From Armatimonadota bacterium (GTDB lineage: Bacteria; Armatimonadota; Armatimonadia; Armatimonadales; Armatimonadaceae), in NCBI GenBank assembly GCA_043754515.1, contig JAYUUO010000169.1, forward strand, positions 1 to 35,143: a DNA stretch of 35,143 nt. Reading direction: 5' to 3'. Of the stretch, positions 9,793 through 18,789 are shown piece after piece. The translations under genes were made by a program, and so were the position numbers. The notes beneath the pieces are model-generated. The model saw only the letters and a program-made list of their open reading frames with translations. It was not told the origin of the DNA and did not search any database. The stretch's first letter is position 1. Every line of letters begins with the position of its first letter.

Positions 9793-10422
9793 TTACGGCT
9801 TCGCGGCAGTCCCCATGTTGCTAGCCGATCCAAGGGCGGCGAGCGCACGGGACGCGAGTCGCGTCGCAGGAGCCTCTTGCGGCTTTTCGTCGGCGAGTGT
9901 GTTGCTATACACGATCTTGCCCATCGGATTTATGACTACGACACGCGGGCACGGCTCGGCCTGGTAGAGAACTCCGGTGACATTCAGAGCTTCCGTGTCG
10001 CACAGGACAGCCGTGCGTTTCGGATCCAGCCCACACGATGCCGTGCGCTGACGGGCTTCCCCCTGGTCGCTCGTTGAGTAGACGATGACAGTGGCGGCGT
10101 TCGGAGGAACCAATCCCGCCTGCTGATATCGCGCCCATTCGGTACCCAAAGCACGGCACGCGGGACAACCACAAAAGAAGAACAGCGCAACGCTACGGGC
10201 GACGACTTTCTTGCCCGGACGATGTAGACCGATGATCTTGCTCAGATCACGCGGCTTGCCCGTGAAGGCGTCAGGAAGTGTAAAGTCCGGCGCGGCGTCC
10301 CCCACGGCGACGGCATGTGAGGGCGTCGCCCCTTGTCGCGGTGCCGCCAGAACAAAGGGGACAAAAGCGAAGTATAAACACAGCAGGGCGGCTCGGCACA
10401 ACACGCGACGGGCCGTAGTCAC
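9793..10422 (-). CDS. Exported redoxin (AhpC/TSA-like, thioredoxin fold)
   Basis: Signal peptide; VGDAAPDFTLPD; CGCPAC active-site region; GTG overlaps the upstream TGA. Confidence 0.85.
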   Translation of the reverse strand: MTTARRVLCRAALLCLYFAFVPFVLAAPRQGATPSHAVAVGDAAPDFTLPDAFTGKPRDLSKIIGLHRPGKKVVARSVALFFFCGCPACRALGTEWARYQQAGLVPPNAATVIVYSTSDQGEARQRTASCGLDPKRTAVLCDTEALNVTGVLYQAEPCPRVVVINPMGKIVYSNTLADEKPQEAPATRLASRALAALGSASNMGTAAKP

Positions 10423-12905
10423 TTCCTCTGCCGTGCCCCTTCCACTTCCCCTGTCACCGGGATGATGATGTCGCGGTTCGCCTTCGGGGAGTGTAACAGT
10501 AGCTCGGTGCGAAGTAACATCCCCCTCGGGGCGTTCTCGTTGATCGTCACGGTTAATACAGCCAGATGATCACTCTGTTTTGTCAGGTTCACGAAGAGCC
10601 AGGGACTGCCGGAAGCGATACGCATGTTGTCAAGCAAGCCGTCCTTTGTGGACTCCAGCGTGACTTTGAACGTTCGAGATCGGCCTGACACCTGATCCCC
10701 CGTGCCCGGTGTCGGGAACACGACCGCTAATGGGGTGAGGTGGATTTCGCCCCGCACGACGGCGGATACCGGGAGACTAAGATCCCCGAGCATGGCACCA
10801 GACGTCACGGATTCCCCGCCCGGCTTTGCCGCGAAGCGGAGCGAGGAGTTCGCGATTCCGATCGGTGCCTCCTTGGAAATCGCAACGCCATACTCGACGT
10901 AGGAGCCATCGGCGGGTGGGGCAGACCGCCGTACTATCAAGAAAGAGTTGTCCGATTCCAGTGTAAGTTCGGAAGCGAGCCTCGCGCGGAGCGCGGGGTC
11001 ATCGCAATACACCTTCACCGTCGTAGCGGCCCCCCGCCCGGACGGGACGACCCCGAAGGCGATGCTCTCCGGCACGAAACGGACCGGGGAAGGAACCTTG
11101 CCAGTGATCTCCAACGCCACCACCGGTTGCTGCGTCCCTTCGACGTAAACCAGACCGTACTTGCCCCGCGCGACGCCCGCCCCGACCTTGTTCAAATCTA
11201 ATTCGACCGTGACCGAGATGGTAGCCTGCGGCGCGACGGTGACGGGTGTCGAAGCCGACGCCGCGTTGGCACCCTCCGGTTCGCGGCTTATTCCGGTCAC
11301 GGCGATGCACCCGCACGAGCCGCCAACCTTACGAATAATCAGGGGCAGAGACGATTCATTTTTCAGCAGGAAGGCGTGCCGCACGACGGACTTCGTCGGG
11401 TCCGCGCTCGCGAACAGGTAGGAACCGACGTTTGGTAGGGGCGACGTGACAGCCCCCGAAGACACGACATGTAGCCCGCTGTCGCTGAGCCATGGGAAAC
11501 TTCTCGCTCCCGGTTCGGGCGGCGTGGGTGCCTCCCCCACTCTTATAGTCGGTACCGGGCGGGTTGTTTGGGTGCTCTGGGCTTGAGGCGAGGCTTCCGA
11601 CGGAACAGGAGACGAGCAAGAAAGGCGGGCTACTTTGGAGACACTCGCAGACTTATTGGCGGGGGCGGACGTCGCGGGCAGAAGCAGTTGTAGCATGTCA
11701 TCGAGCGGGGCTTCCTTCGCCAGGACATGCCCGTCAGGACCGATGAGCACGTTGTATGGTAAGGAGTTCACCTCGTACGAGAGCGCGAGTGGATCCGCCC
11801 ATCCCTTGCCCGACCCCACAGACGTCCAGGTAACGCCAGATTGCTTGATCTTCGCCTTCGCCGGAGCGACGTTACGCCCGGAGTCCAGTCCGATGCTAAT
11901 CGGGACGAGACGTTGCCCGACCGGGAGTTGCTTCCACTTCTTGATAGTGCCCCAGTCCCGATCACAGACCGGACACCACGTCCCCCAAAACTGGAGCAAC
12001 ACATATTTTCCGTGCAAGGAATTAAGGGTAATGAGTCGCCCCCCTGGTCCCGGCAGCGAGAACTCCGGTGCCATCCGACTCTCACGTACGTTTGAACCGG
12101 TGCGAGGCGATCTGATTGGATTCGTAGCCGTTTCGCCTGGAGTAGGCGTAGTAGCGAAGTACGATAGCGGGTAAGTGACGTTGATTCTGTAATTGCTAAA
12201 CTTTTCAACGTGTTTCAGCGTGTAAGCTCCTCGCGTGACCTCGCGCTCAATTCTGCGTGGTAGCTTATCGCTATCACCGACGAACACGCGCGTGACATCA
12301 GAACCGGGGGCAGACTGATCTGCGTTATCGCTTGCCGCGCCACTCGAGGTAGACAACTCGATCACCGCGCAGTAGATTCCCTCCACATTGGAGAATCCTC
12401 TCAGCCGAACCTGACGACCGACAGCCGGGGTGAGAGACGACCAATCCTCCCCACTGAAAATGTTTGTCGCGATAACGCTTAGGGCGGGCGCGCCCCGTGA
12501 GAGGAGAGTGCGAATACGCTCCCGTCGCATCGGCGGCAGTTGATCTTTGATGTATTTCCCTGCTCCCAGGCGAATGTACATGTCGGATCCGAGTGCCGTC
12601 GTCTTCACCGTGTGACCTCCACGGTCAGTCACTGCCGCAAATCGGTCGGGAGCCTCCATGACAATGGATGAGTGCCACGCCGTATTTTGTGGCGAAGACA
12701 CTGCTCCTCCGAATTGTCCGCGAACCGGTGAATCGTGACCGCGGCCAATGCTGGGCGCAAGCGTTGCGCCCGTGACTGACGTATCCACGTCAAAAGAAAT
12801 GGAGGACAGCTTGCGTATGCTCCCGCCCATCTCCTCCAATAGAGTGATAGCAGAAGGCAACGGTTGAGCGGTCGCCCGGGCCGGTGGTGTGTTATCTTGA
12901 TGCAT
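10419..12905 (-). CDS. Multidomain protein: LolA-like/DUF2092-like + TlpA redoxin + DUF1573/Ig-like
   Basis: APEFSLPG...GKYVLLQFWGTWCPVC (TlpA); FLLKNESSLPLIIRKVGGSCGC (DUF1573); beta-rich N-terminus with LPRRIER. No obvious signal peptide at this start. Confidence 0.8.
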   Translation of the reverse strand: MHQDNTPPARATAQPLPSAITLLEEMGGSIRKLSSISFDVDTSVTGATLAPSIGRGHDSPVRGQFGGAVSSPQNTAWHSSIVMEAPDRFAAVTDRGGHTVKTTALGSDMYIRLGAGKYIKDQLPPMRRERIRTLLSRGAPALSVIATNIFSGEDWSSLTPAVGRQVRLRGFSNVEGIYCAVIELSTSSGAASDNADQSAPGSDVTRVFVGDSDKLPRRIEREVTRGAYTLKHVEKFSNYRINVTYPLSYFATTPTPGETATNPIRSPRTGSNVRESRMAPEFSLPGPGGRLITLNSLHGKYVLLQFWGTWCPVCDRDWGTIKKWKQLPVGQRLVPISIGLDSGRNVAPAKAKIKQSGVTWTSVGSGKGWADPLALSYEVNSLPYNVLIGPDGHVLAKEAPLDDMLQLLLPATSAPANKSASVSKVARLSCSSPVPSEASPQAQSTQTTRPVPTIRVGEAPTPPEPGARSFPWLSDSGLHVVSSGAVTSPLPNVGSYLFASADPTKSVVRHAFLLKNESSLPLIIRKVGGSCGCIAVTGISREPEGANAASASTPVTVAPQATISVTVELDLNKVGAGVARGKYGLVYVEGTQQPVVALEITGKVPSPVRFVPESIAFGVVPSGRGAATTVKVYCDDPALRARLASELTLESDNSFLIVRRSAPPADGSYVEYGVAISKEAPIGIANSSLRFAAKPGGESVTSGAMLGDLSLPVSAVVRGEIHLTPLAVVFPTPGTGDQVSGRSRTFKVTLESTKDGLLDNMRIASGSPWLFVNLTKQSDHLAVLTVTINENAPRGMLLRTELLLHSPKANRDIIIPVTGEVEGARQRK

Positions 12906-13026
12906 ATTTATGACGCGATCCCGTATGGCCTTAATTATTTAGCGTTTCGCTCGTGTCTTCAGCGGTCGCGAGTCTCGATAGGGCGGCTCTCATCCAGCCG
13001 CGCAACGCGTGTCAATGTGAGCTTCG

Positions 13027-17904: not shown

Positions 17905-18455
17905 GATCAAAGATTGTTTACCACAATTGTAGTGCGATATTTAGAAGCAGGGACGGGCTGATCAAAAGGAGGTGTGCGCTTTGAAATAAAGTATAACCCC
18001 CCTATTGTGTAAATGCTGTTCACTCTCAATTCGGCAACCCGCCCTCATACGCTGAAGCAAACGCCTTAATTGCAGAAAAATGAACTCCCTTCCAGTTGAG
18101 CACACCCACTGGCCTACTAAAACGTATGTGAGTAAACTCGGAGTGAAGGCCACCGAAGGTGTCCGACAAGAATGGAAGCCGTACGCGATGGGTTAAACTC
18201 CGGGTAGGCGGAAGAGGCGATGCGCACTGGAGGGTGAAAGCGAGGGGGAGTTTGCTCTTGTGGCTTGCCGACATGCACTTTGGCGACACGCAGAATGTCG
18301 GTCGGTAAAAGATTCAGTTTGCCACCGCTGTGCTCGGCGATTATCTGAACAGCACCTCCCGCATAAGCGGAGACGCACAACCCCCATATTATAAGAGCGG
18401 TGATAATGCCAGTGCTATTGTTGGGCGTGGCCGAACGACGGGATGATTGCTTCAA
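17905..18455 (-). pseudogene. Decayed secreted protein of unknown function
   Basis: TTG after an AAGGT RBS-like site; signal-like IITALIIWGLCVSAYA; coding-like sequence continues across successive frames; low GC. Confidence 0.45.
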
Positions 18456-18760
18456 TTGATTACCTTACATAAAATCTGTTCGGAAGCGACCATTCTGATC
18501 GCGATGATCAACGTGGGAGGTTTGGTACTAAACCCGGCTCGCCTTTGAGAAGGATCAGGGAAAGAAGATAACACCGTTCGCCGTGTTCTTTCCAACACAT
18601 TCGGCTACGGACTCGTTGTTTGGGGGGAAGGAACTACCCCCATGGCTGTATGTGGTTAACCCACTGAGCAGACTTCAACCAATACGGGAACTATGAACAC
18701 CAGCAGGAGAGTTTCGCCTGCCGCATGTCGGCGTGTAGGCACACCGATTTGGATGTCACA

Positions 18761-18789
18761 ATCGTACTCGCGGCACTCATCTTTGTCAA
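18761..18789 (-). promoter_or_regulatory. Sigma-70 promoter driving the island 1 operon
   Basis: TTGACA (18789-18784), 17-nt spacer, TACGAT (18766-18761). Confidence 0.75.

Follow-up and report, generated by a model that had tools for sequence, protein, structure and literature searches.

A decaying gene island in an Armatimonadota genome as a possible relative of secreted partner-toxin-immunity modules

The Neisseria MafA/MafB proteins (PMC3482391; PMC7738311) are the polymorphic toxins that were used for comparison in this study. A conserved secreted gene precedes the toxin gene, MafA being a small lipoprotein; the toxin MafB has a signal peptide, a lineage-specific constant N-terminus, an optional Hint domain and a variable tip, and is accompanied by an immunity gene and orphan cassettes. 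The general concept of Sec-exported deaminase toxins with immunoglobulin-like (Ig) domains is already known (PMC3239186). According to the same paper, toxin deaminases of the YwqJ clade possess the motif Gx[CH]xE, an insert and a CxxC motif, and the end of their open reading frame (ORF) is coupled to a probable immunity gene. The subject of the present analysis is a unit of minus-strand genes in contig C169 (JAYUUO010000169.1, 35,143 nucleotides (nt)) of a 5.13-Mb Armatimonadota genome with 62.4% guanine plus cytosine (GC); this whole contig is designated the window. The unit comprises, in this order, a signal-peptide remnant, ankyrin 2, a signal ORF with a Big_1 domain, a deaminase-like frame, ankyrin 1, a DUF2092-like/TlpA/DUF1573 gene and a redoxin gene. 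The order had been given in an initial annotation and was confirmed by the ORFs and Pfam matches. The same annotation had interpreted the unit as an undescribed, Sec-exported, non-Rhs system in which an Ig segment carries a deaminase toxin and the redoxin and DUF1573 proteins act as dedicated helpers. Related loci do support a system of this kind, but one that consists of two genes, a partner and a toxin, and has no dedicated redox helpers. To judge from sequence comparison, the window itself likely belongs to this system, and at roughly even odds (about 0.5) the unit is the wrecked, minimal relative of such a partner-toxin-immunity module.

The link to the partner genes is provided by a signal/Ig pseudogene (15243-16297, minus strand like all genes of the unit). 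A signal ORF (16085-16297) is followed by a frameshift, by stops at 16011 and 15978, and then by a Big_1 domain (Pfam E-value 3e-8, under the cut-off) and a second Ig-like domain. The latter two are collectively designated module B; module A is a further domain that precedes module B in many homologs and is absent from the window. A module-B profile built without the window scored the window segment with an E-value of 2.5e-42. The segment and the deaminase-like frame share one reading frame (16196-14601), which is interrupted by five stops. The corresponding sequence, read through the stops, was scored against 1.84 billion representative proteins. The 17 matches consisted of two ORFs of the window itself, one close fragment and 14 distant homologs. 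Thirteen of the distant homologs match the Ig segment only and end at most 22 residues past the match; the fourteenth is a generic Big_1/GLUG protein. With lengths of 391-1949 amino acids (aa), these homologs are rich in Ig, FN3 or PKD domains, and most are long and have an N-terminal signal peptide (judged by eye). None of the 14 possesses a toxin tip or belongs to a toxin family. Moreover, the end of the Ig ORF of the window coincides, to the residue, with that of a relative of 92% identity. Because 13 of the 14 homologs and this relative end here, module B is regarded as a terminal module, and the end of the Ig ORF is likely the natural end of a partner gene. The C-termini of intact Ig homologs had been named beforehand as the check on a role of the segment as toxin carrier, and they speak against it. 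In 401 genomes of the phylum, the read-through sequence gave four matches, all in the Big_1 range, and the module-B profile added one partial match from sets of 27 and 71 genomes.

An Ig carrier fused to its toxin in this lineage only is therefore an unlikely explanation. Such a protein of approximately 560 aa would consist of a signal peptide, two Ig domains, a linker and the deaminase; it would be exported by Sec and present the deaminase on a short Ig stalk, with ankyrin 1 protecting the producer. Just two TAG stops separate the Ig segment from the deaminase in the shared frame, and in the close relative P0004 (82% identity over 82 aa) the two upstream TAG positions of the window are occupied by sense codons, so that TAG lesions do occur here. 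The deaminase-like frame lacks a clear signal peptide of its own, and a fusion would resemble the Sec-exported deaminase toxins with Ig domains recorded in Iyer 2011 (PMC3239186). A single contig from another study (depth 3.8) matches the Ig end down to position 15173, and its remaining 193 letters depart from the deaminase. The strain may accordingly have another tip; the divergent end fits a tip swapped on a fused carrier, but is equally compatible with two separate genes. A fused form was found neither among the 14 distant homologs nor in a word search of longer proteins with the Ig ORF, which is a weak test, and the identical end of the 92%-identical relative also argues for separate genes.

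If the Ig ORF ends naturally, the toxin gene of the two-gene arrangement would be the deaminase-like remnant (14598-15251). An ATGA whose ATG lies in the deaminase frame is located at the Ig end, and a possible start at 15251 overlaps this end. The frame contains stops at 15243, 15228 and 14904, and a stop codon is found two codons ahead of GNCAE. Its only recognizable feature is the motif GNCAE...PCDYC: GNCAE, 45 residues and PCDYC conform to the YwqJ-clade signature. A pattern of this type occurs three times in the six-frame translation of the genome, one occurrence being a Rhs tip on contig C133; of 3000 shuffled versions of the island, 5 contain it. PCxxCK is also a feature of the Pput_2613 clade, whose HTE motif the window lacks. 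The frame has no Pfam match at an E-value of 10 or below and none in NCBIfam, and its own N-terminal ORF was the only match among the 1.84 billion proteins. The YwqJ family PF14431 gave no match to it in a search of the own genome or in tests at the window, profile tests against three YwqJ tips were negative, and a single-sequence fold model reached a mean predicted local distance difference test (pLDDT) score of 35 and was not used. No trafficking domain is recognizable on the frame; the Ig module is in frame with it, yet terminal in homologs. The designation as deaminase thus stands on a rare YwqJ-type motif, and family, homology and fold searches of the broken frame did not add to it. We consider it quite probable that the frame was once a toxin tip, most likely of a deaminase.

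Directly downstream, and coupled to this frame by an ATGA overlap, lies the intact gene for ankyrin 1 (13027-14601; Pfam Ank E-value 3e-53), a candidate immunity protein of the deaminase-like frame. It is 34% identical over 413 aa to ankyrin 2 (16284-17854), which is split by a frameshift near 17638 into two ORFs (17597-17854 and 16284-17579) and probably represents an immunity gene that is older or orphaned. Further relatives of ankyrin 1 are generic (24-34% identity). Ankyrin immunity is listed for deaminase toxins in Zhang 2012 (PMC3482391), and ankyrins directly follow Rhs tips on contigs C112 and C63 of the same genome. The immunity proteins listed for the YwqJ clade are, in contrast, SUKH3 and Imm6. 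It is very unlikely that no toxin was ever encoded, the "deaminase" being another small cysteine-containing protein and the ankyrins having no immunity function. The lack of profile, homology and structure support for the frame and the merely generic relatives of the large ankyrins would agree with this. However, the motif fits a published signature and is rare by chance; the ORF that it terminates overlaps by ATGA with an ankyrin gene, and the related system does have YwqJ-type tips (L126).

To examine intact loci, 20 partner loci were chosen from a profile search of 401 genomes; extensions, two metagenome loci and 11 loci found with the toxin domain were then added. The search had yielded matches in 86 genomes, many of them to shared upstream repeats. 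Module A or B ends 23 distinct partner genes. Behind 13 of these 23 follows a protein with a signal peptide and a conserved unnamed N-terminal domain, and seven of the 13 possess a tip, a Hint domain, or both. Full module B is present in seven partners, two of which are followed by Hint toxins of the new family (L099 and L125). In L110, the gene behind a full-module-B partner encodes a secreted protein with a DCSG..H motif, which we take to be NlpC/P60-like. In L098, which stems from the genus of the window, the partner has a full module B and overlaps by ATGA with the gene of a 308-aa secreted protein containing the motif CxxC/DH/CxxC/Q, a pattern given for NGO1392-like nucleases in Zhang 2012 (PMC3482391). 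For both L098 and L110 these are motif readings without Pfam support. ATGA overlaps were observed at four of seven partner/next-gene junctions.

The tips of the toxins are highly variable. The 20 tips located behind Hint fall in 16 groups, with Pfam matches to ribonuclease, SsdA_C and YwqJ, and a WHH nuclease ends a member of the family that has no Hint. Among seven database proteins (P0020-P0026), the N-termini are 48-75% identical to that of the first, and no two tips are alike. SUKH, SUKH-3 and Imm5 immunity genes follow the toxins. In L125, a partner/toxin pair is accompanied by small genes, five orphan Hint cassettes and another such pair. L118, L109 and L119 belong to a single array, in which three partner/toxin pairs are joined by Imm5 genes and by a WHH nuclease that has SUKH beside it. 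The Hint-YwqJ toxin of L126 is accompanied by SUKH-3; an orphan YwqJ cassette occurs at the same locus, and L109 likewise has orphan cassettes. A local core profile detected no Rhs core at the partner and toxin genes. The toxin N-terminal domain has no match in Pfam, NCBIfam or Atlas. It occurs in 11 of the 401 genomes and in 9 of 27 genomes of one family, the profile having members from six of them. A weak, tipless candidate is encoded on contig C85 of the own genome (E-value 6e-4). A structure model of P0020 (mean pLDDT 55) consists of a beta-rich region, an Ig-like domain (residues 288-420), helices and Hint; in a fold search, only Hint gave a clear match, the Ig-like region reaching Z-scores of 6-7 and the first domain 6.7. 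A pattern scan of metagenomes for partners gave 122 pattern matches, none of which was confirmed. No description of the partner/toxin family was found in the open-access literature; entries for proteins of this kind may exist in the supplements of PMC3482391 and PMC3239186.

Several further observations were made at these loci. The tipless proteins of L107, L118 (gene at 16556), L153, L155, L156 and L157 end in a Big_1-like region that weakly resembles module B. The profile-profile comparison of this region with module B (E-value 2e-4, probability 44%) suggests common building blocks in the chassis of partner and toxin. In L102 (8597-11995), a partial module-B gene is followed by that of a 1132-aa Ig-rich protein whose end resembles an HExxH metallopeptidase (weak Pfam match). 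In L119 (392-3190) and L109 (1856-2968), the tips have a weak match to a BURPS668-type deaminase (E-value 0.13) and, as judged by eye, display a papain-like C/H/N pattern. In the same-genus genome G002, some 7 kb separate a Rhs locus (L162, 807-5748) and a weak, tipless family member.

A number of findings weigh against assigning the window to this system. The connection is made by module B alone, at 25-35% identity; the window has no toxin N-terminal domain, Hint or module A. The first of these is likewise missing from the toxin-like gene behind the partner in L098. The frame common to Ig segment and deaminase is explained directly by a fusion. The similarity of the deaminase-like frame to three YwqJ tips is not significant, the score being reached by 109-395 of 1000 shuffles. 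Six of the 13 proteins that follow partners are tipless, often with TPR and WD40 genes behind them, and three of the seven full-module-B partners are followed by WD40, by DUF2092-TlpA and by a protein of no assigned family, so that partners also function in operons without toxins. The counts are partly circular, as the toxin domain was the reason for including L153, L154 and L156, and several of the counted genes went into its profile; when only the 20 loci selected by partner match are considered, the domain is found behind 7 of 17 partners. Finally, an empty site was not found: the left flanking gene has no clear ortholog beside the GHL10 gene (the right neighbor of the unit) in relatives, and no joint across the site was seen in four sequencing runs.

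Given that many partner operons are tipless, one may ask whether unrelated remnants simply accumulated here: the deaminase and ankyrin as a Rhs orphan cassette, the helper genes from a Rhs-adjacent copy, and the Ig part from a surface operon unrelated to toxins. The genome would offer ample sources, with 23 Rhs cores over the cut-off, Rhs-Hint orphan arrays, a YwqJ-like Rhs tip, Rhs-ankyrin pairs, and helper paralogs behind Rhs genes on contigs C269 and C249. We still regard this origin as rather improbable, as the sequence ahead of the deaminase frame contains neither a Rhs core nor a DPxG motif nor a remnant of Hint, the toxin-like frame is located exactly at the toxin position of intact module-B loci, and three tight overlaps suggest co-transcribed modules. 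Rhs, contact-dependent inhibition (CDI), type VI secretion system (T6SS) and LXG families are, as previously noted, missing among the 31 ORFs of the window, and none of the 25 matches to the Rhs core (TIGR03696) in the genome lies on its contig. The Rhs toxins of this genome resemble the window in their tips with ankyrin or SUKH-like immunity, orphan arrays, decay, and helper paralogs at two loci; they differ in that the window and the partner/toxin genes have neither a Rhs core nor YD repeats. Arrays of Rhs and Hint orphan cassettes with many tips and immunity genes are found on contigs C200, C234, C68, C196 and C313, and many Rhs genes are broken. On C133 (10700-11790; L120), the YwqJ-like tip of a Rhs gene (GACGE...PCKGC) is preceded by a stop; a small gene is located downstream.

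In the partner-toxin-immunity interpretation, the middle of the island would be a wrecked module of three genes, encoding a secreted Ig-rich partner, a separate toxin and an immunity protein; the deaminase-like frame would be the former toxin tip and ankyrin 1 its immunity protein. In intact loci, Sec presumably exports both partner and toxin, and the partner may hold or display the constant beta-rich/Ig-like N-terminus of the toxin. Hint, where present, would cut off the variable nuclease, RNase or deaminase tip, and the freed tip would poison neighboring bacteria. Tips could be replaced from the downstream orphan cassettes, and the redoxin/DUF1573/TlpA genes would be a general envelope module riding along. 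By analogy, intact loci may work like MafA/MafB without matching its domains. L099, L109, L118, L125 and L154 have in common with MafA/MafB an upstream conserved secreted gene, a toxin with signal peptide and lineage-specific constant N-terminus, optional Hint, a variable tip, an immunity gene and orphan cassettes. However, none of the toxins or partners scanned has a Pfam match to MafB-N (DUF1020) or MafA. The partner is a large multi-Ig/FN3 protein instead of a small lipoprotein, the N-terminus of the toxin consists of an unnamed beta-rich region and an Ig-like domain, and tipless members exist.

A broader reading is tentative. Armatimonadota and Abditibacteriaceae may possess a Sec-dependent surface assembly composed of a long Ig/FN3 partner and a beta-rich second subunit, its route being distinct from Rhs, CDI, T6SS, the type VII secretion system and Maf. 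This chassis would exist unarmed (tipless, with TPR/WD40) or armed, namely with Hint, orphan arrays and tips that can be exchanged (nuclease, RNase, deaminase or peptidase); the window and L098 would be a minimal form, and the tip of the former a deaminase outside the described clades. Note that Abditibacterium is placed under Armatimonadota by GTDB and under Abditibacteriota by NCBI. The window has thus led to intact arrays of polymorphic toxins, with an unmatched N-terminal domain and an Ig-rich partner, in a phylum that has received little study. One chassis is used with and without toxin tips, and many tips, divergent deaminases included, lack a family match. Should delivery require the partner, interbacterial toxins would have one more export route.

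The two remaining genes of the unit form the redoxin/DUF1573 pair. The first (10419-12905) encodes an 828-aa protein with DUF2092/LolA-like, TlpA (WCPVC) and DUF1573 Ig domains (Pfam E-values 0.0026, 1.4e-8 and 7e-6, respectively); the LolA-like domain noted earlier is present as a match, which is under the Pfam cut-off. At the called start, no signal peptide is visible by eye; the protein may therefore be dead as an envelope enzyme. In common with DUF1573 envelope proteins, an SCGC motif is present at the position where, according to PMC9312934, selenoprotein members have UGC; NCBIfam NF041425 matches with an E-value of 3e-6. The second gene (9793-10422) encodes a redoxin with a signal peptide (by eye) and a CGCxxC motif (Pfam Redoxin E-value 7.5e-6). 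Redoxin matches were found in 39 of 400 other genomes of the phylum, and three paralogs exist in the own genome. Of the 43 matches outside the own genome, 20 were inspected in stretches of 14-20 kb, long contigs being favored. A DUF1573-type gene adjoins or is fused to redoxin in 19 of these 20 loci of DUF1573 (PF07610)/TlpA/redoxin envelope proteins, as in the window. Rhs core, Hint, module A or B and the toxin domain are absent from all 20, and the helper profiles gave no match in 36 partner/toxin stretches (33 distinct loci). Neighboring genes have housekeeping functions or encode large secreted proteins of the FN3, lectin and PEP-CTERM types; in L059, L064, L065, L051 and L053, redoxin/DUF1573 genes close operons of huge secreted FN3, CARDB, lectin and PEP-CTERM proteins. 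The pair is regarded as a general envelope module of the phylum. Its recurrent linkage to toxin loci had been the second check named beforehand, and no such linkage was seen in these other genomes.

Dedicated helpers, as initially proposed, are thus not supported: linkage to Rhs was seen at two places of the own genome only, namely a helper pair behind a Rhs gene on C269 and a LolA-like paralog remnant directly behind a Rhs core on C249. Two further copies are cut off by contig ends. As there are 23 Rhs cores in this genome, the adjacency looks like local co-mobility and not like a dedicated folding pathway. In 71 genomes of the order, the LolA-like domain was represented by the own paralog and two marginal matches. 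Redoxin/DUF1573 genes elsewhere mostly stand alone or behind large secreted genes, whereas the pair of the window adjoins toxin-like genes. A candidate helper link in L116, where a Big_1 gene precedes a DUF2092-TlpA lipoprotein, was dropped, as the gene is a phosphodiester glycosidase with a generic Big_1 domain. As a conserved module of the phylum, the pair provides a lead for the function of DUF1573.

The gene unit is a 9.3-kb decaying island, bounded by two copies of a diverged 106-bp direct repeat (9645-9747 and 18964-19068, both plus strand; 78% identity, E-value 1e-16) that occurs just twice in the genome. The right copy comprises the leader and 5' end of an intact GHL10 gene (ATG at 19040; GHL10 E-value 4e-63), the left one is a dead copy of this leader and the first codons (ATG at 9722). 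The GC content of the island is 59.7% (54.9% in the Ig-deaminase part) compared to 64.6% and 65.3% in the flanks. No integrase was seen. Most likely, to judge from these features, it was acquired and is now decaying. The decay that had been proposed is borne out by the frameshifts and the five stops; the repeat, the shared Ig-deaminase frame and the frameshift in ankyrin 2 had not been noted before. A reassembly of a possible source run covers the stretch with 0 differences (it is not independent of the deposited assembly), so that the lesions are not an artefact of one assembly. Pieces of the island are present in runs from three other studies, one of which spans both repeat junctions. Runs from two of these studies have one extra base at the ankyrin 2 frameshift, which indicates that decay differs among strains.

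The overlapping start and stop codons described earlier were recovered at three junctions: 14 nt between ankyrin 2 and the signal ORF, ATGA between deaminase and ankyrin 1, and GTGA between DUF1573 and redoxin. The proposed consensus promoter (18761-18789, minus strand; TTGACA-17-TACGAT) matches a sigma-70 consensus in 10 of 12 positions, but sites of this quality are not above chance (6 found, 3.3 +/- 2.1 expected from shuffles). The adjoining signal-peptide remnant (18117-18455; 112 aa) is of unassigned origin, with no match in Pfam, the own genome or the fetched loci and no usable one in Atlas.

Outside the island, a second region of low GC content (54%) extends from 26335 to 31496. It encodes secreted proteins with C-terminal membrane anchors (26335-27495 and 30402-31496) and a small Cys-rich secreted protein (27502-27990); the three proteins have no Pfam or NCBIfam match. 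A paralog of the gene at 30402-31496 on contig C276 is 72% identical and frameshifted. An inverted similarity between 9543-9584 and 20739-20780 corresponds to the ends of two paralogous HATPase_c_2 domains. A 39-nt inverted repeat is located at 29356-29481, and a perfect 20-nt inverted repeat with an 11-nt loop (24625-24675) lies near a VanZ-like gene.

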